A DNA stretch of 49,279 bases, filler included, from Sphacelaria rigidula (GCA_964200075.2; 3 parts of 3 records of this genome joined end to end with filler, not necessarily neighbours in it), one strand, 5' to 3'; positions 8,394-32,921 are shown, numbered from the whole stretch's first letter. A program made the numbers and translations. The notes: generated by a model not told the origin, from the sequence alone.

Positions 8394-8398
8394 TTTTT

Positions 8399-8855: not shown

Positions 8856-9065
8856 TGTAATGCGTGAGAGGACCGCGTGCTTAGAGGACCGCATCGGCGT
8901 TTGAATATCCCTAGAGTTAGGGTTGGTGTTAGTGTTAGTGTTGGGGTTAGGATCAGGAATGTGGTCCCTGCGAGGACTGGCGCGATTGGTATTAAAAACG
9001 TCGATCCTGAGGTGTTTCGAGCTACGGCGCGGTCCTCTGAACACGCGGTCCTCTAACGCACTACA
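8856..9065 (-). mobile_element. TGTAATGCG TIR element with TTAGGG-like core, copy 2, nested in a piggyBac-like MITE
   Basis: Reverse orientation. It interrupts the host TIR gggagtccg|...|atccggtccc with flanks GTCCG/ATCCG. Confidence 0.8.
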
Positions 9066-9537: not shown

Positions 9538-9795
9538 TGTAGTCAAATGATACCAAGCCGTAGGTTTTAGTATAATCGCATGCATAATTGGAGCAGTCGC
9601 AGGGGACAGGGGATCCTGGATTAGTGGCCCTGATCTGTGTGGTCCCTTGCTGGTTAGCTCTTGATGTGGTCTGTTGAGGATCACTCCGTGATAATAACAG
9701 ATGAGAATAAAGTACTTGTCGAGCACGAGGTCAGTGCTACTGGAGGAGTCCCACGTGGATAGCCCTGTTGTCCAGATCATCTGGCAGAGGCTATA
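9538..9795 (+). repeat. 5' LTR
   Basis: TGTAGTCAAATGATACCAAGCCGTAGG...TCTGGCAGAGGCTATA, a direct repeat of 14485-14723. Confidence 0.88.
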
Positions 9796-9992
9796 ATATC
9801 CGGATATTCTTCCTGCACTCTGTTAGAGGAGTTTTGACTGAGGAGGAAAATGGGCAGCAGCTGAGAGCCAGTTTAGCCCGCAGACAGGAGGAGACCAGCT
9901 TGAAGCGCACAGCAAGGGGGGGCGCTCCGTGAGCTGGAGGACGCACAAGTCAGGCAAGAGTATCTCCGTGAAGTGTTTGAAGCATACACGAC

Positions 9993-10968
9993 ATGGCTCA
10001 AGCGGCGGCAGCGCCGCTGGTGTTAGGTGAGCCACTACAGCCACCAAAGTATGGCCAAGTATGGGCAGAAGAGGCATCACGAGTTTTTTCCGCAGGATAT
10101 CTTGAACACATACAGCGTTGGAGTCTCGCGTATTCACAAGAAAATATACGGCATGAGAGAGTAAGTATAGGGCAACTCATTCCTGTCAACATTCACCGCT
10201 GCTTCGAAGACATGTACAAGGACGGTCGGGCTATGACCCCCAATGAATTGCTTGATGCTGTGGAGCAGCATGCCGGGTATAATACAACCTGTGGGAAGCA
10301 TGACGCTGCGCGGGCTGCAGCTGACCTGCGTAGGGTACTTAGGGTGAAGCAAAATGGGGGAAATCTATCAGGGATTGTGCTATGATGGCAGTTCAGATTT
10401 GGAACGGTGTTTTGCAGAGAACCTGATGGTGCGAGCCATGTACCGCGCGGAGGACAAGAGTTGATCGCCAGGCCCGACCGAGTCGGTTTCCATGGCTTTG
10501 GTGGACGGGATTTCGCCCCCGGAATTCACGGCGTATGTTAGAAGTGTACTTACGTATGTTGACGGCTGGAAAAAGAACCCGACGGTGGTGGTAAAAAACC
10601 TATTTGAGGCGGCCGACCAGTGGAAGTTCATTAAAGCACATGGCTGGCGCGACTACGCAATTAGTGCAGGTGGTATGTGCCGCAAACACCAACATCAACA
10701 GAAACAGCAGCCGTCTTCGCGAGAGTCATCCACTCGCGCGTGTTACAACTGCGGCGACACCGGACATATGATCAAAGACTGCCCCAAGCCTCGCGCTCAA
10801 GGCGCGGCACAGGGCAATGCACGACATTTATCAGGATCTCGGGGCGGTCGTCACGGTGGACGGGGCCGTGCCAATCAGGGACGCGGGTGCGGCGGCCGCG
10901 GTAGCAAGCAATGGGTTGGCGGATGGTGGCTCCTCCACTGCTGTTTCTCCCACTACGTCGTGAGGTGA
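9993..10968 (+). pseudogene. Gypsy gag, disrupted, with CCHC zinc knuckle
   Basis: ORFs 9993-10385 and 10492-10968. CX2CX4HX4C is followed by an RG-rich stretch. Confidence 0.8.
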
Positions 10969-11014
10969 TGACTCTGGATCTTATGGTTCGTCCGTAGCGG
11001 GGAGGACAGTCTAC

Positions 11015-14000
11015 GTGGGAATTGCAAATACTTCAGTGGGGAGCGCTGGAGCGAATAGCTCGCAACGCCTCGGCCAGGCAGGATCCGTGTCTAGTGCATT
11101 GCCTACTGCTGAGACGGCTGTAAGAGCGCCATCTGCATATTTGGAGACTTGGTCTAGTTGGACCGACTATTCGCAGCTATCGATGCCAAGTGCTGGAGGG
11201 CAGCCCTGGCGTCAGGTGACTCTTGGGACAGAACGGGGTTCTTCGGCAGGCGTGATGTCTTTCGACCGCAAGGCTGAATGCTTACGCGCAGATTTATCCT
11301 TGCCTGGTTCTGTAGATTTGTTCATGGCCCGCGTTATTCTGGATTCAGGGTCCGCGCTCACTTCGATCGGTGTGGGGTTGCTAGAACAGATGTCTTCGCA
11401 GTTTGAAGGTGCTCAGCTTCAGATTCCGTTCAAAACCGGACCGCAAACGGCACAGACCGCCACAGGTGCTTCCGTGACGGTTACACACAAAACGGTGCCG
11501 ATTACTGTTAGCGTGCGTACGCCGTGGGGGGCTGTGCAGTTGCAACCCATTACGTTCGCTGTTATGCCCGGTAGGGACAACGTGGGTTTACGTGGGATGG
11601 CGACAATGAAGGAGCTTGGGATTGATCTATATCCGCTGGCGTCGGAGAAGTCACGTCTGCGTGCTGTGCCGGTGCAAACCGGCGTGGAAAACTCCAGTTA
11701 GCTTGCTGCAAGGCGTGTGGTCGTATCCACACGATCATTCCAGAGCGTCCATGAGTAGGGGGCTCCTGCTGATGAAGCGGTAGAGCGCTTGGTCGATCGA
11801 GGGCTGGCTATGTTTATGGACCCAGCAGAGGTGAGAGGTGCACGAGAACGTGCGCTTGAGTATAGTAGTGTGCGGCAGGCCGAGCAGAAGGGCCTGAACG
11901 CCGATGGCGCACTTTGTCTGCGCTATATTTTAGTTCGTCGCGTGGATACATTTCGCCGTGCGCTGCGTGGTGATCTACCAGCGCGTTGAGCCCATGAAGA
12001 TACAGCTTAAGCCCCAGGCAAACGCGGTGAAGGCCAAGCCCAGAAGGTACGGTTCTGTGAAGACCGGGTGACTTGCCCCATGCATTGCAGCTTTGGTGGC
12101 GTTTGGTTCAGTGGTGAGGAATATCCAGGCTGTGTCGGCGAGTCCGGCGATGGCGGTGCCAAAAAGGGACACATTCCGTTTGGTCAGCGACCATCAGGCG
12201 GTGAACGCGCAAGTGGACTAGTCTCCGGGGGTGAAGCCAAGCCAAGAAGACATGCAGCAGTTGCCGGGAGCCCAATGCTTCGGTAAGTTGAACCTGCTAT
12301 GGGGGTATTGGCAGATGCCTCTGGCGCCGGAGGCTCAGGAAAACTTCACGATCGTCACGCCGGACGGTTTGTTTACGCCGTGTCCCGTAGGGCGTGTTGA
12401 ACGCCACGGCGTATTTTTCAAGGTGTGCTGACTGACATTTTGCGAGGTCTAGATTGTAACGTGTGGGTGGATGACGTTTTCTATTTTGCTGAAACCGGAG
12501 AAGCACTCTTTGCTTTGTTTGACGAAATTCTTGGCCGCTTGGAGAAGGTTGGTCTGTCCGTCGCTGCGCATAAGAGTACGTTTTTCGCACGCAAAGTGGT
12601 TTGATGTGGTAAGGTGTACTCAAAGGGTACTGTTTCGCATGATCCCACCCGTATTCAAGGTCTGAGCAATATGCGACGTCCTCAAAACGCTAGTGAGCTG
12701 ATCCAGTTTCTGCAGGCGGTCAATTGGTTGCGGATTTCGCTCCCACGCATGGCGGAAGTAGTTTCTCCGCCTCGAGTATTTCTGGAACAACTCATGGTCG
12801 GGGTGTCGCGTCGGACCAAGCGGGTGGCGCGTAATCGTACCATTCCGGAGGACGCTTGGACGGAGGATTTGTCCGGACATGGCGTGCTGCGCAAGGTTTG
12901 ATGGCGCAAGCGGTGCCGCTGTATCATCCTCGTCCAGGGTGCGTTGTTCTCACGTTTCCAGATACTTATGATTTTCTCTGGGGTAGGTTTTTTACGCAAG
13001 TGCCTGTCGTAGAGTTCGGTAGTGGCATTGCGTTCGAGAACATGACACACGAGCCGTAGACTTTCCTGAGTGGTAGTTTTGAGGGTTCACAGTTGCGGTG
13101 GGCGACAGTGAGCAAGGAAGGTTTCGCGATAGCCAGTACATTTCGAAGGCTAGAGTACTTGCTCTGGGGTGGTGTTCGCATTTTCATCGATCATCGCAAT
13201 CTTAGATACATATTTATCTCATAAGAGTGTGTCAATCGGTGACGAAGGCCATGGTACAACTGCTTGAAAATTGGAAAGGAGTACAAGGCCAATATCGGTA
13301 TGCCATTGAACACACTCCTGGAGAGCGCAGTTGTTGGGGAGATTTTTTGTATCGCTGGGTGAAGGTTCCTACCGTGCCTGTTCGCTCTGTTGTCGTGTAC
13401 AGCACGTGTGATGCCCGTGATTCGCTGCCCTCGTCAGATGTCATTCGTAGCGCGCGGCGAAAAACAGTCGGCGACTGTGTTCATTATTTTCCTACAACTT
13501 TCGGTCAAGCTTCTTTGGCTGACGATGGTTTGTTTCGCGTGCGTGTTGGCAGTAGTGAAGTTTTGTGGATTCCGTCCGATGATATGGCTCTACAAACTTG
13601 CTTGATGCTGTGTGCTCACATGCGGTCGGCTGGTCACCGCGGTGTGGCGCCGACTCTGTTTTGTTTGAAAGAATACTGTGTGTAATGCGAGAGAGGACCG
13701 CGTGCTCAGAGGACCGCCCCGTAGGTCAAAACACCTCGGGATCGACGCGTTTCAAAACCAATCGGGCCAGTACCTGCAGGCCCCACGCCCCTGACTATAA
13801 CCCCAACACTAACCCTGATCCTAACCCTAACCATAGGGATGTTCAAATTCCGATGCGGTTCTCTAAGCACGCGGTCCTCTCACGCATTGTAGACAAGCAA
13901 GTGCGATTTTGTGACGAAGTGCAAGCTGCTGTCGCGGTGTCTCGCGAAACCAAACCCAAGCTTGCTCAGGGCCAGGCTGTATTGCCCAAGTTTGCAGTTC

Positions 14001-14467
14001 GTGATTTCGTACTATATGCCCGTGTTTGGAGGCAAGGTGTGACGCTAAAGTTGATGTCCACGTGGGAGGTCGGAGCAGATTACGCTCACGTGCAATCGGT
14101 GCAGAACATTGTTTCTGGCGCCGTGCACTCGGCCCATGTCGCTCGTGTACGTTTTTATGCTGACTCGCAGTTGCATATCACTGCGGGACTAAAATATGTG
14201 TTTCAGCATTGGTATGCTCAAGGTGACAATGGTCATGTCATTGTTTTAGTCGACTGGGAAGGGTTCGGTGCTGAAGAACGTACGTGGGAATCTCTGCGCG
14301 GGATTCATTCTTCTGCGCCTGAATTTGTTTCAAAGGAACTGCGTAAATTGCGGTCGACTCAGGCGCTGATCAGTAAATTAGCGTCGGAGTATGGTATTCC
14401 TTCGTGGTCTGGCGCCTGCGATTTCGCCTTGGTTTTGTTGTTTGTCAAGCTCGTTCGTTTGCCTTGA
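11015..14467 (+). pseudogene. Gypsy pol (protease-RT-RNase H-integrase-chromodomain), disrupted, integrase core missing
   Basis: Domain motifs occur in Gypsy order across several frames. The integrase Zn-finger region ends at 13680 and sequence resumes at the C-terminal region after 13891. Confidence 0.85.
13681..13891 (+). mobile_element. TGTAATGCG TIR element copy 3, inside Gypsy integrase
   Basis: TIRs tgtaatgcgagagaggaccgcgtgctcagaggaccgc / gcggttctctaagcacgcggtcctctcacgcattgta. No TSD. Confidence 0.8.
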
Positions 14468-16362: not shown

Positions 16363-16462
16363 NNNNNNNNNNNNNNNNNNNNNNNNNNNNNNNNNNNNNN
16401 NNNNNNTTAATTAATTAANNNNNNNNNNNNNNNNNNNNNNNNNNNNNNNNNNNNNNNNNNNN
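16363..16462. other. Artificial contig linker (44 N + TTAATTAATTAA + 44 N)
   Basis: Six-frame stop spacer inside Ns, identical to 32822-32921. Confidence 0.95.
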
Positions 16463-17486
16463 CCCTCTTTCCCTCACAGCATATTTCTGTATACAGCCCC
16501 CCCCCCCCCCCCCCCCCGCCGCGGGGGGGTTGTGCCCCCCCCCCCCCCCCCCCTCCGGTCAAAAACTCGAACTTTCGATCTTGGGGTCCACGTGTTCCGA
16601 AATATATTTTTGACAGACCCTTGTCGGCGCAGTAAAATATCGTGACCGTATTGTACTGTGATGAAATAGTATGATCGACGTGAGCCCGTAGATTGCGATG
16701 AAGCACTCCCTGGACTGACCACACCGTCGGAGCGTACAGTATCGACTATTACAGCTCTCAAGGTACGCGGGACAATTTTTGACAGTGAATGTATCTTGTC
16801 CAAATTGTGGAATCAAGACACACTGTAGCCTCAACGTTGAAATATGGCCAGTTTTGGGGCTGGGGGGCGGGGAAGTTGGGGGATTTATTTTAGGGCGTCT
16901 GATATTCAAGTTTTTTTTTTCGTTGGGGAAAGGGGTTTTTAACCAGGATCCAATACTTGACCCGATGATACAGGAAAACAAATTACGGGGGTCTGGTGTA
17001 CATGTATGCGAGTCACTTGAGTCGTGTTCGGACCGACTGACCACTTGGATCAGGTGTGGTCGGTCTTGCAATAGTCGCTTGGATACAAAGTGATCAGTCT
17101 GTGTCCGAGACGAGAGCCAAAACTACTGCGCTGGAGATGGCAATTTGGAACACCAAGTTACTTCTGCTTAGTGTGCCGGGTAATCATATAGATGCATTAT
17201 CGCCAGTCTTGATCGCTCAATTACCTCATGGTCGGTCTATATTCAACACAAGAGCCAAACAAAGCTAGTTGACCTCAGACTACACACACGAGCAAGTTAG
17301 CCGGATCAGCATACTTGTTGAAAATCTTGGGGCACAAAAAATATCAAACTTCTCCCGGGGGGGGGGGGGGGGGGGGCGGCCACACAAGTGTCTGGAATCT
17401 TGACCGACGGGGCCCCTGTATGGTCAATGTTTCTCTAGTTTCAGTACTGTACGGATTAAAAAAGAAGAATGAAATGCCACGAAGAC

Positions 17487-17691
17487 TGTAATGCGTGGGA
17501 GGGCCGCGTGCTTAGAGGACCGCGCCGTAGTTCAAAACATCGCAGGATCGATGTTTTTCAACACCAATCGGGTCAGTCCCTGGAGGTACCACGCCCCTGA
17601 TCATAACCTCAACACTAACCCCAACCCTAACCAAATGGATGTTCAAATTCCGACGCTGTCCTCTAAGCACGCGGTCCTCTCACGCATTACA
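17487..17691 (+). mobile_element. TGTAATGCG TIR element copy 4
   Basis: tgtaatgcgtgggagggccgcgtgcttagaggaccgc ... gcacgcggtcctctcacgcattaca with ctaaccccaaccctaacc core. Confidence 0.8.
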
Positions 17692-20280
17692 AAGGTAATA
17701 GCTTCGCCCAGATTGCCCGCAGTTTTAGGTTGCTCTACTCGTAGAGGGTGCACAGTTCCGAATAAACTCGCTTGCTCTGTACAGAAAAAAACGGTGAAGA
17801 GAAAGTGCGTGATGAACCCCATTCTGAATCAACGCTCTTCTCTCAATCTCACGAACAAAGTTTACTTGCACTTACTTTTGTGCGATGATGTGAGCTTAAA
17901 ACGAACGTACAAAATTGTAACTGGTTGATTCCAGCATTATATCGTGTTTTTCGGGCATGTTCAGCGTTAATGCATGGAAAACTGCATTTAAATCTTCGCA
18001 TTTCGCAACCGAACATGATACAGCTGTTTCTTAGATTTCCCCGGGCCGCATCATTTATTTCGTTCTTTTGCATTTCGAAGTACTCTGCACCGGCTTCTGG
18101 GGGTCTTGTGGCCCCTCACCGCAGACTATTGCGGCCGACAAAATGTATCGATATTTGGTTTTCACAATGTATGCATGGGGGCAATGGCAATCGACAGACC
18201 GCGTGCCAAATAAGTTGATGACGATGGCTATTGACAGATTCTATACCAAAGCTATTGATGACGGTAACCGCCATTGATGAAATGTGTACAAAAGCTATGC
18301 ATGGCGGCAATGAAAACCGATAGATACATGCCAGAATCTGCCGTGGTATACAATGCCTACCGATAGATATTCTGTCATCTATCGCCACACCTACGTTGCA
18401 ACATTGTATGTCATTATAGAGCATATTGTACCCCGTTCAGGTGCGGCAGAGAAGCCACAGTTTGACGTGCAGTGGGTATGTGATGGTCCTATTTGCGAAT
18501 ATATGACGCTACGTTTCTACAATTTTGAAACGCTTGGATTTTGTAGGAATCCGCAACATGTGTGAACCAAAGTTTACAAGTGTTGTTGTGTGATGTTGGT
18601 ACTTCTGGTTGTCCCTCTGATGTACACAAACGCTTACAGTACTATTTTGTGTGTGGGAGATGTGCTTATACCCTGGACAATAGACTACGTAATACAACAA
18701 TTCGCGCTGCAATATCCCCGAAAAATTGACTTTCAATGTTCATTGTCAAGTCACGCGACCGGCATCGGTGGTTATCGATAGCTACGTAGACGACAACAGA
18801 TTCGGGACAAGGGACAAAATGTATCATTGCCGTGACAGTGGAGGGGCCAAGTTGTCTATCGATACGTTCTATTTTTTGCAATGAGCTCTGAATTGCGGCC
18901 AACGATGTCTGTTGCTAATCTCAATAGCATATGCCACGTGGCTACTAGTACATATTTTTGGTTACAATAGAATTTAAATTACGCTCACCGATGTCTATGA
19001 AGGGTCAGAATATCATCTGGATCGCGGCCACCAACGTATATCGATGGTTACAATACAATCTGAATCCGTATATCGATGGTTACAATTCAATCTGAATCGA
19101 GGCCACCAATCACTATCTACTGCTGGCCACAAAAGTAGCTGACGTGGGTCACTAGCTATATTTGCACATTTTCCAGTGGATGTTTCCATCTGCATTCACG
19201 GAAGCTACGCCCCCCCATCGCCTCAGGTAGTTGCGCGTTCATGTGTGAGAGGCACTGCCGTTGGTGTCATGCGACCACTGCAGTGAGCAATGTATTCATC
19301 AAAACCTATCGTTAGCGTCACTGGCTATCGATAGGTGCTCCCGAGAACAACCGATTGTCGACGGCAATGACCGTGTTCATAGATACCCAAAAATGCATTG
19401 TTGGCGGCAGAGGCTGCCGATAGACGACTCATCCAATCTATTGATGACGGAGATTGGAATTATTGATGCATGGTTAACCTCATCCTTTCATGACGATGAT
19501 GACTATCGATGTGGCTCACCAAATCAATCGATAACGGCAATGGCTGTTGATGGAGGGCTCGCCACACCTATTAACTACGGTAGTGACTATCGATACGTAC
19601 ATACCAAAATCTTTTGCGGTACACGATTTCCATCGATGGAGTAACCTTAATCTATTAAAACTGCCGAAGGCTGGCGATTGACTACTGCAACATGTATCAT
19701 CCCTTGCAATACATAACAATAGAGGTGTTTTAACATCTATCGTGTTCGGCAATACACATCGATAGGTTTCCCCCCATGTCTGTTGCTGAAGCATCGGACT
19801 ATTATTGTGCACTCGATTCTTCAAGTACTTGAGCTCATGCTCTTCGCCCTTCATTGTTCTGCCTGAGGACTTTTCCTGATTGCTATGATCTTCTCTGCTT
19901 GGTTACTTCTCAGCTCAACCGCAACGAGTTATTCCGCTGAACCTACGTAAATATTCGTTCGGAACTGCATTTCTCGTACTCTCCAACAAGCCCTTCGAGA
20001 TGCCGTTCCAAATATGTTCTTGAAACAAAAATCAAACTCACTCTTATCTAACACACACATGTATATACTGCACTTCACGTGTACTGCAGTATCATGATTT
20101 TTTTTCGCACTGTCATCAAACATTCCTTCATGATGAAAAACAATCGAGTCCTCGTACCTGTAAGGCTCACGAAGTCCTGATCCAATGACGAGGTCGTGGC
20201 TGCCCTCCTCAGTTCTCGCTCCCCACTGATCAAGTTGATATGTGCTGTTTCTTTATTGCGGTCGGCTCTACACGAAGCAG

Positions 20281-20386
20281 CGTGACAAGTGCAAGCATTT
20301 CTCATGCCCGGGTGACTGGAAGCCAACCGGCGACGACCGCAAGAGATGCCGCGGAAAGTGCGATAAGTACGACTGCTGCTACAAGG
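20281..20386 (+). CDS. Cys-repeat exon R0 (divergent N-terminal repeat)
   Basis: gcag|CGT...AAG G|gtgagt, phase 0-1: RDKCKHFSCPGDWKPTGDDRKRCRGKCDKYDCCYK. Confidence 0.8.
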
Positions 20387-20985
20387 GTGAGTGACATCCG
20401 AATGATTACATCTGACGCTGACGGATAAGGAATCAACGGTTACAGTTGTTTCGGGAAGTGTCACCTATTTTCGAAGTACTGTACACCGGAGTTGTTTGAG
20501 AATACTTTACTGGTCGCCCCGGTGGCTCGGTTGGTAACCTCGAAGCATTCTGACGGTTGAGTCGCGGGTTTGAATATCGGAGCTATCTGGGATTTTTTGG
20601 CACACAGAATCCAACAGTGGAGAGCAAGCATGTCGTGAGTACACAACACTTCCCACGATAGCCCCTCCCCATCTCCCCCCAAAAAACCAGCCCAAAAGCG
20701 TCACGACAAAAATGGCCATACAGCGCCTGATGCTTGGGTCCAGGCTGCATGAAGCGCCTCATATGGGCGACAGTTGCGAGAACGAACCCAAGCGTGGGAA
20801 TTCCGACCTGGTCGTTCAGTTTGGCCTTTCCCATTTCGATTCACGTGAAGATTTCACCTCCCCAAACGAGGCACTTTGGGCGGAGGTGGGGGGGCGTACT
20901 CATTTGTTGCTTGCCTCAGTCGTTTGACGATTGACCACGCATCCATCTGGAGGCGGAGCACCGTTCCTACTACTTACAGCCAAAG

Positions 20986-21017
<32 letters not shown>

Positions 21018-24000
21018 CGCACTCACTTGTTGCTTGCCTCGGTCGTTTGATCATTAACCGTGCATCCCTTTCGAGACGAAGCACCGTTCCTACTCCTGAT
21101 AGTGCCACCTTCAATATCCCGGCGCTCATCACGTCGCCTCCAGACACCACACGAAACCTTCTTCGTACCTCATCCCCGTCCTGTTTCGCCGTCTGTGGCC
21201 ACCATCTATCTCCTGGATGGCCATCGTTCCCTCCCTACCGTTTGATGCATCGAACGATTTCATGCCACCTTCGTCCACGTCCCGCATTTCCCCCTCTAGC
21301 ACGTCCCGTTTCTCCCTGTATGGTTCACATTTGCACACCTCTCGTGGTTGTCAGTTTTGAAGCCCTTGAATCGGTTTTGGATGTTGCAGTATTGGGCCAC
21401 GCCCACGAATTGCACGGCCCTTGAGCCCTTTCGCTGCCGCCGCCGGGCCCCATTTGTATTAGCCACCCCCGATACTTGGAAGCTAGACGCGCTGGATCGA
21501 GCAAACCCATGACTGGCAAATTCATTCCCGTCACTGGTCGTGATATGTCGACGTTACTCGGGCGCCACAGAGGAGACGTGCAAGGACGACTTCACCTGCC
21601 CTGACGGCTACCTCAATCGCGGTGACAAGAAGTGCCACGGAAAGTGCGATCAGGGCGAATGTTGCGAGGAAGGTGATTACCTCTAACAGCAATGCTGCAT
21701 GCATCTACCTGCGGTTGGTTGTAGTCTAAATTACTCGTTTTGGATACGGTAAAAGTCGGCTGGGATATCGTATATGGTCGTGAACGCCCTGCTCCGGAGA
21801 AAGAAGCGCGTGTATTGAGGGTGTGACGGCGTTCCAGCAAGATGAGATCTAGTAATTACCTAGTCATCATTTGTCGGCGCGCCTGTATAGTCAAGCTAGT
21901 AGAACTGAAACAAGCTTGGGCGGGACAGCGCGGGTTCGATTCCCGGCTAATGCATTCGGGATTTTCTTCGAAAAGTAAATGATCCCAGCGGTTGAAGATG
22001 TGAGAAAGCGAGTTGTTGTCAAGAACATTTGACGAGAGTCGCCGCCGTGCGGCAGTGTTGAATCAAGCCGCGATGCCACGGTCTAAAGCGAGTGCCGGAG
22101 GAGTAATGGACACATCTTCACACCACGGATTCGTCACGAGGCAGGACAGAGGTTAAAAATATGGAAAGAAGAACAACTACAGTACATAACATTAGTGTAG
22201 TTTATAATGATGCTCGTCCACCTTACCTCGAAGCGGCCCGCCACACTTCATCGAGAAAGTGCGTCAGCGCTGCTCAATCGTGATGCCGACACGCATGCAT
22301 TGGTTGTCGTGTCCGTGGCAGAAGTGAAGACATGCAAGAACGACTTTGTCTGCCCTAGCGGTTTCCTGAACCTCGGTGACAAGAAGTGCAGCGGCAAGTG
22401 CGACCAGTACGAATGTTGCGAGAAGGGTGAGTGGAGAGAGCAATACCCCCAATCAGCCGTTGTTACTGTGGCACTGATACGTTTGAAGGGTCATATGGTT
22501 CATTCTAAGGGACTTTAGTGTAGTAACGTTTACGGCACAGTAGAGTCTTGCGGTTGACAAAGCGGCGCGGTAGAATAAAAAGACATGACGAGATGAACCT
22601 AATTAGTATATCCGGACAACGCGGAGAGTAGCAGTCCATATCTCACCATTGTAGAATGTGGCATAGCACGTCGTTGCTGTTTGAATGCGAGGGCGACGCT
22701 CGTTCGTTGGTTACCGTGCCCGTGGCAGAGGTGAAGACGTGCAAGGACGATTTCACGTGCCCCCACGGCTTCCTCAACCTCGGTGACAAGAAGTGCCGCG
22801 ACAAGTGCGACCAGGGGGAATGTTGCGAGAAGGGTGAGTGTCTGAAAGGAGCAGTGCCTGCAGCTGTAGTGTTCAATCGCGTTGGATACGGTCCAGGAGT
22901 TTGACTGGTATTTCGAATGCTTTGTCATTCTTTCAGGCGTGCATGGAGCACAGCGCCCATGGTGAGACATGATAACTCTTTTTTTGCCGTTCTGGTTCCT
23001 AGCCGGACACCGAATCAACATTTTGTGTTTTTACTGGAGACACCCCGCATGGTTTCTAAAGAGTGCTATTTCGACGGTGTACTGTCACGCATCGTAGGTC
23101 ACGTGTTTGTGACCATAGCCAGCTAGCACGTTGGCCGTCACAATGCAGCACAGCACGTCGATCTCGTCTTGGTGCACAATAACTATCGATGGAAGAAGTG
23201 TATGCATACTTTCCGGAACACTCGTGTTGATACACCGCAAGACGAACCAGTTACCGCAAAGCGTTGAGAAAGCACGGAAGTTGCTCGAACGCGATAACGA
23301 CGCTCCTTCTTTCGCTGCCGTGTCCGTCGCAGAGGTGAAGACGTGCAAGGACGACTTCACCTGCCCCAGCGGCTTCCTCAACCTCGGTGACAAGAAGTGC
23401 CGCGGCAAGTGCGACCAGGGGGAATGTTGCGAGAAGGGTGAGTGTCTGGAGAAAGCAATACCCCCGATCTGCCGTTGTTGACACTGATACATTCATCTAA
23501 GTAGTTGACTTGACATACTGGCTACATGTCAGAATGTTTTCGTGAGATTGAGAGTAGAGGACACGATTGAGAGGGGTTTTGATCATCCGCTTTAACTCGG
23601 CCATTTTTCTATTCCGCGTGCGCTTTCTTTGCCTCCATCACTGGCGTGTGCTTACAGCTGCATGTCGATATCCTACACGGGATATCGAGGGCCTCAGTGG
23701 CAAGGTACAACATAATCATATCGGGCCTCGTGGAAAATGACATTTCGGAACTGGAACGGTTCATTCACTAATTGAACGCTTTTCACTCTCAATCGTATCC
23801 TCTACTCTCCATCTCACGAAAGCATTGTCATGTCTCGTTTTGTGACGTCAGTGTGACAAAATCTACGGCACCGTAGAGCTCGGTACAGCGCTTGTAGGTC
23901 TTGCATTTGACGATACCGCGTCGTAGAGTACATGACATGAGATGAACCTGGTTAGCGTATCGGTACACCTCGAAGGGAAAGTGATCAACATCATATCCTT

Positions 24001-27000
24001 GAAGGTGTTGCATAGCACGTCATCGCTGCTCGAGTGCGACGGTGACACTCGTTCGTTGGTTAACGTGCTCGTGGCAGAGGTGAAGACGTGCAAGGACGAT
24101 TTCATGTGCCCTCGCGGCTTCCTGAACCGCGGTAACAAGGAGTGCCGCGGCAAGTGCGACCAGTACGAATGTTGCGAGAAGGGTGAGTGCGTGAAGGTTG
24201 CAACTCTAGAAATTCCTCTGTTCATGGGTGTCCCATCCTTCACAGCTCGAGGACGGTTCTAAACTTTGATTCTCGAAACCTCAGCGACGAACCAATCTCC
24301 ACTGCGAGGCCGTGCTGGCTTTGGTCTGCAACGGAAGTCAGAGTATCATCAGAGTGCGTAGGTCTCCACCTTGGCATCGATGTCAATCACCCAAGAATAT
24401 TTCAACGCATGGTGTCACAGTGGAGGTGAAAAGACACTTCCTGGGTGTTTCCCTCAGAAGCAGAAGCACAGTCTGTGAAGCTTTCTCCCGGTTGGCCCCT
24501 TCTTCGATAGCGTACCGTTCTTGCTTGACGCGACGGCGACATTCGTGTTTTACCTTTCGCGTCTTTCGCAGAGGTGAAGATATGCAAGGACGACTATACG
24601 TGCCCCAGCGGCTTCCTGAACCGCGGTAACAAGGAGTGCCGCGACGAGTGTGACAAGCGCGAATGTTGCGAAAAAGGTGAGCGTACGAAGAAACCAGTAC
24701 CTGAAGTCTTGCCAGGGTTCCATTTTGGAAAAGCTCGATACACACTGCGGGTTCTGTAGGTCGTGAAATGACGATCACTATGTGTATGCAACCATCGCAT
24801 ATCGTTGGAAGTTATGCCCGGTATGTTTTTGTCGCTCAAATACGACAGCAACCCTCCTCCATCCTCTGCCGTGTTCTTCTCAGAGGCGAAGACATGCAAG
24901 GACGACTTCGTCTGCCCCCGTGGCTACCTGAACCGCGGTGATGACAAGTGCCGCTGCAAGTGCGACCAGCGAGAGTGTTGCGAGAAGGGTAAGTATCTGG
25001 AGGGTGTTAGCTAGTCGACGCTCGCTTTCAACACGACAGATGGGGTTCGCTGACACACTGATGGCACGATTGGCTCCTGTTTATGCATGGTTTGGCGACC
25101 CTTGCGGCCCAGTCCGCTCGGTGAAACGTGCAGGCGTGACGTGTGAAAGCACGTTGTAAAGAACGTACCATGAGATGGACCGGATGAGCGTATCGCGGTA
25201 CCGCAGAGCGGACAAATCAATATTGTATCCCTGTGCTGCACATCGCGTCAGTATTGCTCGAACGTGATGACGACACGTATTACTTCGGCTGCCGTGTCCG
25301 TCGAAGAGGTCAAGACGTGCAAGGACGACTACACCTGTCCCAGCGGCTTCCTGAACCGCGGATACAAGGAGTGCCGCGGCAAGTGCGACAAGCGCGAATG
25401 CTGCGAGAAAGGTGAGACGCCTGAAGGAAGCAGTACCTCCAATCGGTCGTTGTCGGCACTGATGCGTTCGAAGTACCCGACTGACATACCGGTTACCTTG
25501 CTTTGTGAGGTTACCTTGCTTTGTGAAGTGAGAATGACGACGTTTAAGGCACCGTACAACACGGTACAACGTGCAGATCTTGCATTTGACAAAACTTCGT
25601 GGTAGTGTAAATGAGATGAGATGAATGTGATTGGTGTTTCGGCACACCGTGAAAAGGGAAATCAAGGTAATGTCATTGGCAAGTGTTGCATAGCACGTGA
25701 TTTTCACTCGAGTGCGACGACGGCACTTGTTCGTTGGCTGCCGTGTCCGTCGCAGAGGTGAAGACGTGCAAGGACGATTTCGTCTGCCCCCGCGGATTCC
25801 TGAACCGCGGCGAGAAGGAGTGCCGCGGCAAGTGCGACCAGCGCGAATGTTGCGAGAAGGGTGAGTGTTGAAAGGTCGCAGCATCTGCAGTCACGATTAA
25901 TGTTTTGTTCGAGCGCGTTCGAAGAAGTTGGCTGGAATATTGGTGGTATCGCTTGCTGTCGTGAATATGGCATAGCGACTCGTACATTTCAGTGCAAGCA
26001 CATCGCCCAACCTCGGAACCCATCCACTGAACTTGAAGCGAAATGATCCACGAGTGGAGACGGGACTCGACGATATACTTGTCTTTCAAGTAAAGTCGGT
26101 TGTGGGGTGCACATCACATCTCCGCAACGAGGGTGACTGTACGATGCCATAGCTGGGATCGTTATAGAAATAGAACGAGGAAAATAATGAGAAAATGGTA
26201 AATGTGAATGCGGATGTTTAGGGAGAATTCGCCCAATTTCAAGGAATTTCACCTTCTAGAACGCTTCATCGGACGAAAGGTCCGGGGGAGTCATGTGCCC
26301 TTCTGGGACCCCCAATCGGCGAAGAAGGCGGAAAAAACATGACAAAATACTGTTCTCAGGAACTTTCGTAATGCCCCGTAGCACACGTGGGTGGTCAAAG
26401 TTTCGGAGTCTAAACATCTGCGGATGAAGGAATCTTTGGTTCCTCCATATGAAGGCGACATTGAAACAATATGTATTTCACTCCCACTAAGCATGTTCCT
26501 TCGTAGTATGGTGTACTATTATTCGAGCGCCAAAACGACGTCCATTCATCACCTGCCGTGTCCGTCGCAGAGGTGAAGACATGCAAGGATGACTTCACCT
26601 GCCCAAGCGGATTCCTGAACCTCGGTAACAAGGAGTGCAGTGGCAAGTGCGATAAGCGCGAATGCTGCGAGAAGGGTAAGTGCCTAGAGAAGGCTACTCC
26701 TCCAGCCAGCCGTTGTTGGCACTGATGCATTCGATTGCGCAGCAAGCTCAGAACAAACTTCAGGTTCTACAGTTTGAAATGGCGGGTCATCCTGTGTATG
26801 TATTTGTCCTGAGTGCTCCTGCTGGTACACTAAAGCACGAGCTACCGCACATCAATGAGAACGTGTCAGTGTGCATAACAACTGGTACTCACCAGAAGCA
26901 AACGACTCGCCGTCGGCGGCATCGTGAGAGTTGGTGTCGAAACAACGCAATCAACGATTGCTGAGTCGGAAACATTGTCAGCTTGAACATTCTCACATTG

Positions 27001-27595
27001 GGCGTACTTGTGGTTCCGTCTGGTTGTGGCAGAGGACGAGAAGTGCCGCGACTACCGTTGTCCCAAGGGGTGGAAGTCTGTCGGCGGCGATGTCACATGC
27101 GACGGTGACTGCGACAAGCGCGACTGCTGCAAGAAGAGGAGGGGTGGCAGGAGAAGGAGGGGTGGCAAGGAGAGCAAGGGCCGCAAGAAGAGCAAGGACG
27201 GCAAGAAGAACAAGGACAACAAGAAGAGCGATGACTGTAAGTCTGGCTCTTTTCTGCATGGGGCGTTCTGATTGTTTGCCGCGGCCAATAAAAGCATTTG
27301 TTGATTGAGCTGCCGCCTGGTGTGCGGCTTCTCTCGCACGGGATGACTGGTGCGGACGACTGAAGCAAAACAGAAAATGACGCAAGTCCGCTGTCGGTCT
27401 TCATTGCTCGAGTATTGTTCGTCACGAATCTGCAAAATTAATGTCGATTTTCCCACCGAATCTCCCCGTGGACATGTCCCCATGATTGCCAGTCAGTAAC
27501 TTTTCCCATTGAGTATGCCTCACTCACACAACAAACGCTCCACACGCTTTCGTTCTCTATCCTCTCGTCCCATCATGATATGCCACAAACCAGGA
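20281..27595 (+). CDS. Multi-exon gene for a Cys-rich tandem-repeat protein (12 six-Cys repeats, one per exon) with basic C-terminal tail; 5' end not identified
   Basis: Exons 20281-20386, 21571-21672, 22322-22426, 22729-22833, 23333-23437, 24078-24182, 24572-24676, 24884-24988, 25307-25411, 25756-25860, 26571-26675, 27033-27236, 27594-27595. All have AG/GT boundaries and join into one stop-free frame of 452 aa with 73 Cys. Confidence 0.88.
20513..20652 (+). mobile_element. tRNA-derived SINE fragment (intronic)
   Basis: A-box-like tggctcggttgg and B-box-like gtttgaat; homologous to 36543-36793. Confidence 0.65.
21571..21672 (+). CDS. Cys-repeat exon R1 (102 nt)
   Basis: cacag|AG...G|gtgatt: EETCKDDFTCPDGYLNRGDKKCHGKCDQGECCEE. 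Confidence 0.88.
21878..21970 (+). mobile_element. tRNA(Gly)-derived SINE head or tRNA relic in intron
   Basis: cgggttcgattcccggctaatgca (21931-21954) closely resembles the T-arm and acceptor 3' strand of eukaryotic tRNA-Gly. The 5' half is degenerate. Confidence 0.5.
22322..22426 (+). CDS. Cys-repeat exon R2 (105 nt)
   Basis: gcag|AA...G|gtgagt: EVKTCKNDFVCPSGFLNLGDKKCSGKCDQYECCEK. Confidence 0.9.
22729..22833 (+). CDS. Cys-repeat exon R3 (105 nt)
   Basis: EVKTCKDDFTCPHGFLNLGDKKCRDKCDQGECCEK; gcag/gtgagt. Confidence 0.9.
23333..23437 (+). CDS. Cys-repeat exon R4 (105 nt)
   Basis: EVKTCKDDFTCPSGFLNLGDKKCRGKCDQGECCEK; gcag/gtgagt. Confidence 0.9.
23531..23828. mobile_element. Intronic MITE with ~43-bp TIRs and apparent 6-bp TSD
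   Basis: agaatgttttcgtgagattgagagtagaggacacgattgagag / ctctcaatcgtatcctctactctccatctcacgaaagcattgt, with CATGTC on both flanks (23525-23530, 23829-23834). Confidence 0.75.
24078..24182 (+). CDS. Cys-repeat exon R5 (105 nt)
   Basis: EVKTCKDDFMCPRGFLNRGNKECRGKCDQYECCEK; gcag/gtgagt. Confidence 0.9.
24572..24676 (+). CDS. Cys-repeat exon R6 (105 nt)
   Basis: EVKICKDDYTCPSGFLNRGNKECRDECDKRECCEK; gcag/gtgagc. Confidence 0.9.
24884..24988 (+). CDS. Cys-repeat exon R7 (105 nt, 7 Cys)
   Basis: EAKTCKDDFVCPRGYLNRGDDKCRCKCDQRECCEK; tcag/gtaagt. Confidence 0.9.
25307..25411 (+). CDS. Cys-repeat exon R8 (105 nt, AAG acceptor)
   Basis: EVKTCKDDYTCPSGFLNRGYKECRGKCDKRECCEK; gaag/gtgaga. Confidence 0.85.
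25756..25860 (+). CDS. Cys-repeat exon R9 (105 nt)
   Basis: EVKTCKDDFVCPRGFLNRGEKECRGKCDQRECCEK; gcag/gtgagt. Confidence 0.9.
26571..26675 (+). CDS. Cys-repeat exon R10 (105 nt)
   Basis: EVKTCKDDFTCPSGFLNLGNKECSGKCDKRECCEK; gcag/gtaagt. Confidence 0.9.
27033..27236 (+). CDS. Exon R11: divergent terminal Cys repeat plus Lys/Arg-rich tail (204 nt)
   Basis: gcag|AG GAC...GAC T|gtaagt: EDEKCRDYRCPKGWKSVGGDVTCDGDCDKRDCCKKRRGGRRRRGGKESKGRKKSKDGKKNKDNKKSDD. Confidence 0.85.
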
Positions 27596-30500
27596 ACGAG
27601 AGCTGGCATGGACGAATTGTCGTGAGACGTAGTTCACTGAGCACAGAGACGAAGTAGGGGGCGCAAGAATCAGCGGGGCGGCTGCATGGTACGACATGTG
27701 TGCGGTGGGTGATGCGGTGGTGCGCTGAAAGTCAACCTACACGTTCGTGTTCGGGAAGCAGCACTATCAAGACTGTGTTGTTTTGTATTAGACCTTGTGG
27801 CGTAGTGTCTGTGAACCTCGTTCACGCACCTATGGAATGATTTCGTCTCCGGGTTTAGACGGCTCAAGAGTGGCGTCTGAAACAGGTGTCAGACAAGGCA
27901 TAATCACTGTGTCAACAGCGAAGAGTGTGTTTTGATCTCGTGGCGCTGTGCAGCATTGATTGGATGCTAGTGGCAGGTAGAATAGTGCGGGTTGTGGATG
28001 TATCACGTGGTGCGGCCAAATTGGCAGCACCGCTGTCCTTGTTGCAGAAACGCAATTGCATTGTGAAAGACGTTGGCGACAGTGAGTGCGTCCGTCTCGT
28101 TTCCGTTGTTGGTCAAGCTGCTTGCGCGTGTTACGTTGACGTGCGGAGAGTGCGCTGCGTTCATGTCCAACTAGATTATATTTCCGCTTTCGTGAAAGCC
28201 TCGGTAGTGGTGAGAACCGGTGCGTGCTGACCGTCCCGAGTATCACTTGAGCTCGCTGTCCATGACTGTTCGGTAGACAAGAAGCAATCATGCGAGCGGT
28301 GTGAACGATGTTGATAGCAGTGTAAACGAATCCAGTAACAAATACGTGTCGATAGTAGTGTACATGAATCTTCACCACGGATGATTCTTGATGGGTTATG
28401 CATGCCGTATCACGAAAAGGTGGCACGTCTTGCTTATCGATGGAGGCAATGATTTGCGTGTGTACAATGGCGAGAGCATGGCATGAACCCCTGAGTGAGA
28501 GGTCGTCTTCATGGTGGAATAGATGGCGTTCGCGACGTTTGCGTAAGATTAGTGCATGTATGGCGGCAGGCTACCGTAGTCCGTAGTCATCCCGCAAGAA
28601 CATTACAGGTGACTACTGCGGGGAGGTGGGTTGGATGTGGCGAATAGCTAGCCAGCGCACGATCTTGGTACTCCCCACCTACCTGTGGAGGGATCTTGGT
28701 GATACCAGTAGAGAGTAGATTTAGGATGAGGCTGGGTGAGCGCCCGCTCTCTTTACCCTCCCGAGGGTGTGCCGTAGTGTATCATAGTTAAATGAGGCAA
28801 GTGTCGAAAGTCTACGCATGACTCCCCTAACGACGCTCAACGAACGTGCGTCCCACAACGACGTCGGACACGAGGCGGTTGTGCAGGCCATAACAAGCAG
28901 ATTGTTCTCCATTTTCAATTTTATCATCGGTGCTCTCAGAGACCAAACGTTTACGGACCATCAAAAAAGGGACATCGTGTCAGTTGTCGTATCATGGCAT
29001 CAACTCTCCACTACAGCAATTCCCAGCACTGTTGCTCCGCCGCCCGCCCCCCCCCCCACCCAGTGCGGCGTCCCTCTTGCATCACGGTGCCTCCATGCCC
29101 TTCCATGGAAGTCGGCAAAACATCCCTCGATCCTGTTGTCATATGATGACTGGAGTGGTGGAACGACATATAACTATCCAACCTTGACGAGTGCCGCAAT
29201 AGCTCCCCACCGAAAAGTGCCAATAAATACACCGACTCGAAAGCTACACGTCTTCAGAGAAGAAGACAGTCTTGTCACTCTATCAAGATTTGTCGGTTTC
29301 TGATCCGTCTCATGGCGATGATGGTGTGTTGTGGTGTAAAGAAGTGAAGGCACCTTGTGGATGTTGTAATGGTGTTCACCAAGATTGTTCCAGGTTCAGA
29401 CCTCCGTACGTTGTTTGTTTCCTCAGCTCAACAGTGCGGGCTGACCACAGTCGCTCTCGTGTTGCTTTCACACAAGCAGACAACAAGCAATTACAGACAA
29501 GAGTAGCACTGTTTTTGTTTCACACAATTGATTGTATCCGAGCTTCATCCACAGCTCAGTTATAGAACGTAATTACAACACAAACCGGAACAGGCCTAAG
29601 CTTTAATCAATAAAACACACCAGGCAAAACACCAGCCCGACTACTGCTCTTATCTCTGGGACTCACTTTCTCGCGGTTTGTACTCCAATGGGGAAACTGG
29701 GGAAGCACAAACGATCGTACACTTCCTTCATCAGTAGAACGCGACGGTGTTGAATGCTCAAGCGGGAAAAAAAAATCGCTGAGCGAAAGACACCGGAAAC
29801 CAAAATCAACATGCAGCCGTGAGGCAACATGATGCACCAGCGTGACGATGAAGGGCGGCCTATAGCATTGAAAAGGTGCCTGTATCGTCCCACAGAGCGT
29901 CAACGAATAACACACAACCGCAGGAGATAAATCCAAGGCGGGTAATCCGATGCGCTCGTGGTGAACCACGGCAAGTATACAGAAAGAGGGGCCGATGCGG
30001 TCCGCTCTTAGATACATTCCCGTTCAGGCGAAAAAATCGACAGGGTGGGCATACAAACGGGAGGATAAACTCCCGCCGAGCACATCAACGCGATAATTCG
30101 CCAGCAATAACCCTACAACAAAAACGAACCACCGTACTGATTTCCGAAGCGGCGGACCGTTTGTACAATCTCGAGACAGCGAAAAACAAAACGAATTTTT
30201 CTTTTTGTTTCGGCGGACTGGTGTAGCAGCGGAACTGAAAAGAATCCAAGAGACGAGAAATATCCCCGAACATGGGGCACCTGATACAGCGAGCAATTAC
30301 ACAGAATCTGCGACGGTACTCGAGGAGAGGGCTTGTTGGACACGCAACACATAACCCGGTCATCGAAAGCCGACGTGAGTCCAACGGTATTATGATACAA
30401 ACGGAATAGTGTTGGCCATAGTGGTCGTCCACATGCGTGTCTCTACTGTACAAGTCGAGTACTAGAGCGAACAACAATAGCATTTCGGTCATGCAGGTTA

Positions 30501-30783
30501 CGAGGTTTTTGCTAGCTCATGCAAATATGACTTACTTTTACTATTATATATGGTTACACATTTCACCATTCCATTTGGCACAGTTCGATTTTACCATCAT
30601 GTCAACCTTCTAGCATCTGCTCGCTGCTGGAATCAAACATCTTACTGTCTCACCGTAACTCTTGAAACAATCGTAAGCTCACAGCATGTGGGTAAGTCCA
30701 ACGTAGAATGACACAGGATGAACGGCACGATATGCTCGGTCACAGATCAAGGCCGATTTCTTTTCTCTCTCTCTCATTGGTGG

Positions 30784-32270
30784 TGTTGAGACTTTGCACT
30801 TCCGAAAAGGAGTGGACACCAGGGTGCACCCGATTGGGTCGGTCCTCGGAAAGAACCGGATCCAACCAGATGTAAAGAGGCATGTTTATGTATTCCGTCT
30901 CTCGACGGATTTACATAACGCCTCACCCCTGACTGCGGTACTAGCCAGTCCCGCAATCAGCCCTCCGGGCGCGTAAGCCGTTTTGAATCGACGGCCCATC
31001 ATCGCACTACCCTTATCCACCACGCCACGCCGCGATCCGCAACACCCCCCCTCAGCCCTAGGGTTGAAAAACCCTGGGACTGAACGTGGTTCACACGATG
31101 GATTGCCGCGTTACCATGTCCTTCTTCCCGAGTACTCGGCGTCTTGGTGTAGCCGTCGATCTTGAAAATCGTTCTGCTGGGTTATACCGCGTAGAGCATT
31201 TCAACACCGTGCAGCAACGATTCTGTCCCGCCCAGGGGGTCGTCCTTAATCTTGTTCACCGCTCTGTCGGGTTAGACCACGTAGGGAATTCAAACACCAT
31301 ACAGAAACGATCCCATCCAGTCCGGAGAAGTCCTTGATCTTGTTGATCGCTCTGTCGGGTTAGACCACGTAGGGAATTCAAACACCGTACAGAAACGATC
31401 CCATCCAGTCTGGAGAAATCCTTGATCTTGTTGATCGCTCTGCCGGGTTAGACCGCGTAGAGAATTTAAACACCGTACAGAAAGGATTCTATCCAATCCG
31501 GAGAAGTCCTCGATCGTGTTGACCGCTCTGGGCTGTCCGTAAACCGTCTGCGGATCTTGGTACATCGGGGAATCTACCGCGCAATTGAGCCCCTCTGATG
31601 ATCCTGGGCCCAGCACTGCTTTCTCGTCCGTCAGAGTATATAGTAGAGGTGTGGACGTGATGTCCTCAGCCAACCCTAAATGTGCCCCCCCAAGCTAGCT
31701 AACAGACCTCGCCTGGACTTGAATGCTGCAGCTGTTCTGGGTGCACATGAAATTTCTCCACCTTGGTCGCGAACACCGTGCGCTCTTGTACTTTACGCAC
31801 CTGCATTTTGACCTCAAGATTGAGACCTGGTATCACCCCCTGCTGCACCGTCCCCGGCCCAGTCTACAAGTCATGTACCGATTTGGCCGGTACATCTTCG
31901 TTCAGAAGGGAGCTGTCAGACTCTTTGACTAGCATCAAATCTTATACCTCTTCCCTACGCCGGTGGCGTTGGGTTAACAGCTCATGAAAGTCCTTCAATG
32001 TTTGTCGCTGTTGCTCTACCGTGTTATTCCAGGTGACGGAGTCGACTTGGGTGCGAGGCTCGCGCTCAAAAGCAGCATTAATCGCGTTGGGCTATGCGGC
32101 AGTGACTGGTCGGAAGTTGTCTGATGAATCCATACAGCAGGATACACATACTCGTCCCCCCATTATAGACACGGCTCACATAGCTCGGCTAAAACGAACT
32201 CCCCCCCAGCGTCACTTCAAAGGAAATAGGGCGTTTCGAGCGCCAAGAACAGTTCCAGCAGACCCTTAAC
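30784..32270 (-). mobile_element. Probable degenerate LTR retrotransposon 3' end (LTR ~30784-31680 plus internal remnant)
   Basis: Minus-strand PPT-like cttggggggg at ~31685-31694, a putative LTR ending ...TCAACA at 30784, and a chromodomain-like remnant (L.EDVPA) at ~31885-31960. Confidence 0.35.
31160..31535. repeat. 88-bp tandem repeat, ~4 copies
   Basis: gctctg(t/c)cgggttagacc...aaacaccgtacagaaacgatcccatccagtccggagaagtccttgatcttgttgatc recurs at 31261, 31349 and 31437, truncated at 31525, and degenerate at ~31171. Confidence 0.9.
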
Positions 32271-32821
32271 GTGCTCAGTAACCTTGGGCTGCTAGTGAAA
32301 GAGCAAAGAGATCTTGGTTGCTCGATCCATAACTACCAACAAGTACTTATTACTAGAAGTAGAAGTCTGCTTTATGTCCGATATGTTCATCTACATCATC
32401 TACCAGAACTACAAAAAGCGGGCGGGTCGAACCAATATGGTGCGACTATTAGTACGTTTGGGTCGGTGACATCCTCAAGACAGCACGTGTGTGCGAGTAT
32501 CGGCGAAAAGACCGGGACACTCATAGCGTGCGTTGACCACTACAGTCGTTTTCATCACTCCGGCGTACCCATGGGTAGTGTGCACCAACGCGAGCAGGCC
32601 AGGTACTAGACTGCGTGGAATTGTCATGGATTTATTGGTCATTTTCCAGTCGACTAGGCTTCATGTGTCATACTTTTGTAATGCTTTGTGTCAGATTATC
32701 TACCCATGTTCTCACAGAGCTTTTAGGATTGATCCCAGCACGTACAGCAGCCTGTCGCCGATAATACAAGAAGCATTTACGCCATCCATGGATTGCGATA
32801 TCAGAGGTGTCGCTGGTCTTC

Positions 32822-32921
32822 NNNNNNNNNNNNNNNNNNNNNNNNNNNNNNNNNNNNNNNNNNNNTTAATTAATTAANNNNNNNNNNNNNNNNNNNNNNN
32901 NNNNNNNNNNNNNNNNNNNNN
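32822..32921. other. Artificial contig linker (44 N + TTAATTAATTAA + 44 N)
   Basis: Identical to 16363-16462. Confidence 0.95.

Follow-up and report, generated by a model that had tools for sequence, protein, structure and literature searches.

Tandem arrays in which every module is encoded by its own phase 1-1 exon are the textbook signature of animal extracellular mosaic proteins, as stated by Patthy's exon-shuffling rule. In this study, an array of this design was analyzed in a brown alga: it lies in a 49,279-nucleotide window from Sphacelaria rigidula (GCA_964200075.2; "the window" denotes the whole stretch of DNA that was analyzed) and encodes twelve six-cysteine modules, one per exon. 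In brown algae, the arrangement of one repeat per exon is known from the ROCO-LRR and NB-ARC-TPR genes. In the available parts of the two main sources, each ROCO LRR is described as one exon of 72 nt (Zambounis et al. 2012, PMC3341825); for these exons, phase 2, alternative splicing and diversifying selection are described (Teng et al. 2024, PMC11378527), and relic or reversed repeat exons are reported in the ROCO introns (PMC3341825); the precedent to which a preliminary description of the array had appealed is therefore real. The genome-wide Ectocarpus screen of 2012 yielded, in the available part of that paper, very few candidates that were neither LRR nor TPR genes, and exon-per-repeat genes of brown algae are known there solely for intracellular LRR/TPR proteins (PMC3341825); to these the present array adds a module of the presumed disulfide type.

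As far as the accessible text of these papers goes (PMC3341825, PMC11378527), the array resembles the ROCO-LRR and NB-ARC-TPR genes in being brown-algal, in having one repeat per exon, equal exon lengths and a symmetric phase, and in a repeat number that varies between paralogues. It differs from them in exon length (105 instead of 72 nt), in phase (1 instead of 2) and in encoding autonomous six-Cys modules and not the units of an intracellular LRR or TPR solenoid. No Pfam match to LRR or TPR was found in the modules and none to ROC-COR or NB-ARC in the open reading frames (ORFs) that were scanned, the 5′ part of the gene being outside the contig. With the animal class 1-1 modules (EGF-like, TNFR-like and sushi), the array has in common units of ∼35–40 residues with six Cys, one unit per phase 1-1 exon and long tandem arrays, and a C-P-x-G-aromatic hairpin is common to the window module, cEGF and sushi, for which weak partial matches cover module positions 7–23. 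However, the Cys spacing differs from that of the animal modules, no Pfam threshold was reached and no Foldseek match was obtained. The design of the array is closer to the animal class 1-1 extracellular modules than to ROCO, but the module is a member of none of those families; given the different lineage, the resemblance would be convergent.

Exon structure and splicing of the array

Two linkers of the form N44-TTAATTAATTAA-N44 (a six-frame stop spacer), located at 16363-16462 and 32822-32921, divide the window into three separate contigs with no physical linkage across the linkers; a further N10 is present at 48428-48437. The array gene is carried by the contig 16463-32821. By a six-frame motif scan of the whole window, exactly 12 six-Cys modules were found, all on the + strand between 20290 and 27130 and spread across three frames, so that splicing is the sole way to join them. 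When mononucleotide-shuffled windows were scanned, not one of 200 shuffles contained even a single match, compared with the 12 observed. The exon ends were set by the nearest AG and GT around each motif match, and every one of the 12 exons is preceded by AG and followed by GT. All ten internal exons (R1 to R10) are of phase 1-1, the first two bases completing a codon and the last base opening the next one, and their Cys spacing is C-x5-C-x11-C-x3-C-x4-CC. The frame joined from R0 is open for 452 codons, and its stop codon is split T|GA over the intron 27237-27593 (27236|27594), which explains why the preliminary description placed the end of the array at 27595.

That description had listed twelve modules in nine exons of 105 nt and one of 102 nt between two caps, with phase 1-1, a common Cys spacing and intact frames, and all of these were recovered by the scan and the exon table. 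Its point that internal exons can be skipped or duplicated without a frameshift also holds, any subset of the ten phase 1-1 exons keeping the frame. Regarding the two cap modules, it was right that R0 and R11, which have C-x4-C spacing and a Trp, bracket the array, but they depart from the internal exons: R0 is of phase 0-1, and R11 is of phase 1-1 but 204 nt long, as it also encodes a basic tail.

The contigs of four sequencing runs (including X1, X5, X7 and X12) were placed on the window; the kinds of these runs (RNA? or DNA-like) are guesses, and the evidence on joints was drawn from 15 of the 243 joints listed. A spliced transcript, on which the preliminary description had staked its reading, was found. 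Among the joints listed, intron-less contigs with GT..AG ends exactly at the predicted borders were observed for 6 of the 12 introns, and the array is a real spliced gene. The N-terminal cap exon R0 (20281-20386, 106 nt, phase 0 in and 1 out) is joined to R1 (21571-21672, 102 nt, of the 'ETCKDDF.CPDGY' subtype) at 20385/21570 in X1 and X5. R1 is joined to R2 (22322-22426) in X5 record 17, which connects 21570-21670 to 22320-22425, and a loose contig end of X1 behind 21672 reads the start of R2. R2 and the eight exons that follow it are each 105 nt long. R3 (22729-22833) was found by the motif scan, the exon table and nhmmer, and R4 (23333-23437) is 95% identical to it; a loose end of X7 before 23332 reads an exon end, and one of X1 behind R5 (24078-24182), at 24182, reads the start of the next exon. 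R6 (24572-24676) and R7 (24884-24988), the latter with a seventh Cys, are joined at 24674/24882 in X1. R8 (25307-25411) has the acceptor AAG and not CAG, and a loose end of X1 behind 25409 reads the start of the next exon. R9 (25756-25860) and R10 (26571-26675) are joined at 25859/26570, and R10 and R11 (27033-27236, 204 nt, the C-terminal cap followed by a K/R/G-rich tail) at 26674/27032, both in X1. The loose ends, which occur at 21672, 23332, 24182, 25409 and 25860, thus all read the start or the end of an adjacent module exon. The stop-splitting intron was observed as the joint 27236/27594 in X1, X5 and X7. Two bases of the last exon (27594-28400, + strand, followed as far as 28400) finish the stop, and the remainder is the 3′ untranslated region (UTR), as seen in record 22 of X5 and in record 29; record 22 continues for ∼500 letters beyond 28400. 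The main transcript appears to include all twelve exons.

In the DNA-like run X12, none of the splice joints of the array was present among the rows listed, and contigs cross the exon-intron borders uninterrupted (records 11-16). The summed contig depth of X1 was 3,660-110,977 in exon-containing bins but 20.6 in 21810-22140 and 6.05 in 26113-26443, two bins with intron sequence only; the contrast in the same bins of X12 was small (60-880 versus 80 and 41). Contigs of the single-copy 3′ UTR of the array gene had a depth of 3,931-5,701 in X1 versus 28.5 in X12. Judging from these summed contig depths, transcripts of the module family look abundant in X1. In the runs labeled organisms B and C, the spliced 3′ end was also present, differing over about 870-930 letters by 4 changed letters and 2 gaps. 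Long ORFs on the opposite strand over the array (e.g., 25081-25890) had no support and were discarded as arising from the composition of the repeats.

At the 5′ end, R0 has no in-frame ATG, and a contig of X1 continues for 20 letters before 20279. R0 is preceded in the gene by an exon beyond the window, to which it is spliced, and the window would contain the 3′-terminal 7.3 kb of the gene. These 20 loose letters had no match in the window with up to 3 mismatches, the best match having 5, and no high-depth block of X1 was found upstream of R0 in 18500-20154. The 5′ exon or exons of the gene may therefore lie outside the contig 16463-32821, and the X1 contig carrying the loose letters could come from a paralogue.

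Identity of the module and its relatives

The preliminary description could not assign the module to a named family, and the profile comparisons agreed with this. None of the 12 modules passed any Pfam threshold, the only match being Shisa_N (E 0.017) in one of them, and the gathering scores of Pfam EGF, TNFR and Sushi were reached by none of the 12. The best match of a sequence profile search of the PDB, a hairpin of complement factor H, had an E-value of 0.046. From a 27-row alignment of the modules, a compact model with a mean pLDDT of 82.4 was obtained by AF2, and this model had no Foldseek match in the PDB. An AF2 model of one relative, P0003, made without an alignment (pLDDT 54.9) was not used, and the ESM Atlas gave leads only (best feature score 0.77, for P0003 and P0042; structure TM at most 0.40). 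In the literature, no description of the module or the gene was found, although supplementary gene-family and expression tables, which were out of reach, might list the family; in the available text of the brown-alga bioRxiv preprints holding the term, 'cysteine-rich' is used solely for EsV-1-7/IMM. The array represents a new, unnamed family of six-Cys modules encoded by phase 1-1 exons in a brown alga.

When 1.84 billion representatives were searched with the module profile, 37 matches at E ≤ 0.001 were obtained, 15 of them at ≤ 1e-10. Among the 20 of the 37 whose names were looked up, the only named relatives were P0002 and P0003, both from Sphacelaria rigidula itself, which are partial and annotated as 'unnamed protein product'; this makes a brown-algal origin of the window probable. 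The other close matches were short ENA/Logan ORFs, that is, single exons reading on into their intron flanks, which shows that gene callers break such genes and that this exon-intron design is also present elsewhere, either at other loci or in closely related organisms. Public protein sets hold the module family almost only as single-exon read-through ORFs. P0003 contains the end of an R0-type module, one internal module, an R11-type cap and a basic tail, and this plan of cap, internal module, cap and basic tail recurs in P0034. In P0002, an R1-type module is placed after an internal-type module. Module number (3 versus 12) and module order thus differ within the family, and these layouts support, at the level of sequence, a change in both between family members over evolutionary time.

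More distant relatives were found with the module profile by hmmsearch, namely P0015 (E 2.4e-11, three stretches) and P0033 (E 1.2e-4). Together with P0015, 17 further proteins (P0041-P0047 and others) were retrieved, all unnamed proteins of marine eukaryotes. Of the 20 proteins of the P0015 group that were examined, 16 carry one to four cap-type modules, a hydrophobic 19-mer lies close to the C-terminus in 14, and 6 have a hydrophobic leader as judged by eye. The profile of the window modules was aligned with that of the P0015 group by hhalign (probability 96.2%, E 2.5e-9, 31 columns), with all six Cys aligned, so the modules are homologous. The type-I membrane proteins of this group share with the window the pattern C-x4-C-P-x-G-W/F/Y ... 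C-x3/4-C-x4-CC, which is closest to the caps R0 and R11. In place of the 12 modules, six-residue linkers and basic tail of the window gene, which has no transmembrane segment from R0 onward, they have one to four modules, Thr/Pro-rich linkers, a transmembrane segment and a cytoplasmic tail that is conserved.

Sushi/selectin proteins, bacterial C-P-x-G-Y repeats and a Bryopsis protein were rejected as relatives, since they match just module positions ∼7–23, the C-P-x-G-aromatic hairpin. A search for longer homologues (119-2000 aa) scored 463 candidates, none of which reached E 0.001, which is weak evidence. In JGI metagenome contigs, a peptide pattern derived from the profile gave 73 matches, none of them confirmed, and a DNA pattern of exon end plus donor gave no match.

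Duplication and selection

The mean pairwise identity of exons R2 to R10 was 0.848 (range 0.771-0.952), and that of the intron flanks was 0.65 at -1 to -50, 0.37 at -51 to -100, 0.44 at +1 to +50 and 0.21-0.30 farther out, in line with the earlier statement that the exons are far more conserved than their introns. The homology of the units runs past the exons for about 25-80 nt upstream and 5-30 nt downstream (repeat families D1 and D2), and introns 4 and 8 align over 223 nt at 74%. As the homology reaches into the intron flanks, each exon was duplicated together with its intron, and the introns decayed later. Such tandem duplication would be the way in which the array grew, and because every unit is of phase 1-1, each duplication kept the frame. 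The closest copies are not always adjacent: the identity is 95% for R3/R4, 91% for R5/R9 and 88% for R6/R8. Over the 36 pairs of R2 to R10, pS (synonymous) was 0.385 and pN (nonsynonymous) 0.103, giving a ratio of 0.27. In the nine 105-nt copies, 24 of the 36 columns are invariant (six Cys, one P, two G and 15 others), and only 9 columns vary in more than one copy. The copies are old and constrained by purifying selection, being neither recently homogenised nor diversifying as a whole. After their duplication, the modules would have been held under this selection.

These values bear on the proposal that the symmetric exons are cassettes and that alternative splicing or rapid genomic shuffling skips, duplicates or swaps them to yield many surface or recognition variants in the manner of ROCO-LRR and NB-ARC-TPR genes. 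The preliminary description had proposed a comparable modular system, and several observations fit it, namely the in-frame subsets of the ten internal exons, the different layouts of family members (one internal module in P0003 versus ten in the window gene, and the R1-type module of P0002), the brown-algal precedent (in the available parts of PMC3341825 and PMC11378527) and a number of unusual joints in X1. Two of these joints connect the end of R9 with the start of R11, skipping R10 (25862->27035, with a depth of 14,815 in three contigs, and 25860->27038), and others go back, e.g., 22418->21571 and 25409->21571. However, a pN/pS of 0.27 and variation in more than one copy at only 9 of the 36 columns speak against it. 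No relic, frame-shifted or reversed module exon was found either, nhmmer with the nine 105-nt exons detecting just the 12 exons below E 1 on both strands of the window; the ROCO genes, in contrast, show diversifying selection and relics in their introns (available parts of PMC11378527 and PMC3341825). On each side, the unusual joints of the k-mer contigs rest on 23-31 letters from exon ends that are nearly identical, and extra or changed letters mark several of them as belonging to other genes; those with inserted letters, such as 25409->21571, agree with expressed paralogues resembling P0002. The depth of 14,815 at the R9-R11-like joint exceeds that of the gene's own 3′ UTR contigs (3,931-5,701), while the canonical R10-R11 joint (5,191) matches them, a weak comparison since these are per-contig depths. 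Furthermore, X12, a second sample of organism A, is collinear with the window over R3-I3-R4, R9-I9-R10, R10-I10 and R11-I11-UTR (I, intron; records 13-16). The joints that resemble exon skipping are indistinguishable from paralogues, and the cassette proposal, including the part of the preliminary description that likened the array to a diversifying shuffling system, is unlikely.

A wider proposal is that brown algae, as a second complex multicellular lineage, independently reached animal-style phase 1-1 six-Cys modules and amplified them into a large, abundantly transcribed family, whose members came to differ in the number of modules (3 to 12 or more) and in their order as exons were duplicated, exchanged and perhaps skipped. 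We consider this improbable as a whole; if true, brown algae of the Sphacelaria lineage would have surface or matrix proteins in combinatorial variety, for use in adhesion or recognition.

In most units, the last ∼20 bases of the intron before the acceptor are near-identical, of the type g-c-c-g-t-g-t-c-c-g-t-c-g-c-a-g. Such tracts are located at 22300-22321, 22707-22728, 23311-23332, 25285-25306, 25734-25755 and 26549-26570, and the tract is also kept in the read-through ORFs of other loci, where it reads '..VSVAE' before the module. Its conservation could reflect a constraint on splicing, or it could merely be part of the duplication unit.

Composition and predicted location of the product

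From R0 onward, the product comprises at least 452 residues, with 73 Cys (16.2%) and 3 His. It consists of the R0 cap, ten six-Cys modules of 35 residues, the R11 cap and a polybasic tail of 35 residues, and six residues lie between the CC of one module and the first Cys of the next. The body contains 93 K+R and 92 D+E (net +1, ∼44% charged residues), and the tail contains 19 K+R and 5 D+E in its 35 residues (net +14). No N-glycosylation sequon was found in the 452 residues and no hydrophobic segment from R0 onward. The DNA of the basic tail (27129-27229) is itself a tandem repeat with periods of 9 and 18 nt (TRF scores 53-88), so the length of the tail may vary by slippage.

We give an even chance to the reading that the gene encodes a secreted, disulfide-bonded protein of the brown-algal extracellular matrix or wall, resembling a string of beads and built by the tandem duplication of exon plus intron. 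The product would be a string of disulfide-stabilised beads separated by six-residue linkers, with a body charge near zero, and it would be located in the extracellular matrix or the cell wall, with the cationic tail as a possible anchor to the polyanionic matrix of alginate or sulfated fucan. Since distant homologous modules occur in proteins that have a leader and a transmembrane segment, the product is plausibly extracellular. The preliminary description had suggested a probably extracellular disulfide-rich domain, and through these relatives (hhalign 96.2%) that suggestion gains plausibility; the 5′ end of the gene, and with it any signal peptide, lies outside the contig.

Several observations weigh against a matrix or wall protein. 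As the N-terminus is outside the contig, which starts at 16463, no signal peptide is visible from R0 onward, and the window modules have neither an N-glycosylation sequon nor mucin-like linkers, unlike their relatives in membrane proteins. Among solved structures, none resembling the module was found by Foldseek (0 matches). The Lys/Arg-rich tail is equally possible as a nuclear or nucleolar signal, and Cys-rich charged repeats could bind metal within the cell. In addition, the kinds of the runs were guessed, and expression cannot be read from the summed contig depths, in which paralogues are mixed.

The composition was also compared with that expected of a polyprotein precursor, in which each exon would encode a six-Cys cationic or defensin-like peptide that proteolysis releases to act against microbes or fouling. 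The Cys order of the module, C-C-C-C-CC, is that of defensins as generally described, the order in beta-defensins and big defensins likewise ending in CC. The transcript appears abundant and the tail is cationic, and the loose letters upstream of R0 end, in the frame of R0, in basic residues that form a dibasic-type site together with its first Arg, which is a lead only. On the other hand, the six-residue linkers contain no dibasic pair, dibasic pairs being found inside the modules instead (G-D-K-K-C), and the modules are charge-neutral and not cationic. The spacing 5/11/3/4/0 differs from the spacings generally described for defensins. Pfam Defensin_beta matched no window module, its only match being a weak one below the cut-off (E 0.0079) in the unrelated Bryopsis protein P0017. 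A peptide precursor is thus very unlikely.

An intracellular metal-binding or nuclear basic protein, whose Cys would ligate Zn, Cu or Cd and whose K/R tail would direct it to the nucleus or nucleolus, has a similarly low probability in our judgment. The Cys content of 16%, the CC and C-x3-C pairs, the polybasic C-terminus, the lack of a sequon and the absence of a visible signal peptide would all suit such a protein. However, neither C-x2-C nor His ligands are present in the modules, the 452 residues containing 3 His in total. The invariant positions (P, G, D and aromatic) and the compact model, predicted with confidence, agree with a folded disulfide domain, and in the distant relatives homologous modules are found between a leader and a transmembrane segment. 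Macaisne et al. reportedly described, in 2017, a Cys/His zinc-finger-like motif pattern; in contrast to this pattern, the modules have no conserved His and no Pfam match.

A wall protein of stramenopiles offers a further comparison for the matrix or wall reading. The frustulins of diatoms are wall proteins with tandem acidic Cys-rich (ACR) domains (PMC4712521, PMC4557024), and the ACR domain is given, in the available part of the source, as ∼50 residues with the motifs CQGDCD and VPGCSG (PMC4712521). By this published description, and not by sequence, CQGDCD resembles the C-x-G-x-C-D of the window modules (C-D-G-D-C-D in R11), but the window module has 35 residues and no VPGCSG. No frustulin was present among the 20 of 37 profile matches whose names were looked up, and the frustulins would serve as a functional analogy only. 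Descriptions of brown-algal extracellular matrices deal mainly with polysaccharides; should the product be located in the wall or matrix, it would add a new protein to them, and its cationic tail suggests a directly testable mode of attaching a protein to alginate or fucan.

Repeats in the introns and features of the other contigs

Intron 1 contains a high-copy repeat (20486-21478), for which the summed depth in X12 is up to 372,125; it includes a direct duplication of 102 nt (20878-20979 and 21001-21102, 81% identity) flanking a run of 31 G (20987-21017). An insert resembling a miniature inverted-repeat transposable element is located in intron 4 at 23533-23826, with terminal inverted repeats of 41 nt that are 93% complementary and 212 nt apart. 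The summed depth of this region in X12 was about 220,000, compared with about 30 for single-copy DNA, and one X12 contig skips 23459-23861. Pieces resembling a tRNA-derived short interspersed nuclear element, with a B-box-like GGTTCGA, were recognized by eye at ∼20520-20590 and, in intron 2, at ∼21930-21960; no tRNA was called by ARAGORN.

On the first contig, 3866-14467 contains the remains of a retrotransposon, with a CCHC zinc knuckle at 10465-10968 (Pfam E 7.4e-8) and a weak chromodomain match at 13583-14467 (E 0.0021). Similar ORF pieces recur at 8687-9052 (- strand), 13583-14467 (+ strand) and 17473-17928 (+ strand). On the third contig, the ORF 45701-46468 has a weak match to the CitMHS transporter that is below the cut-off (E 0.0024), and it adjoins a 5S rRNA gene at 46667-46785 on the - strand (Rfam RF00001, 55.9 bits, E 4.3e-9).

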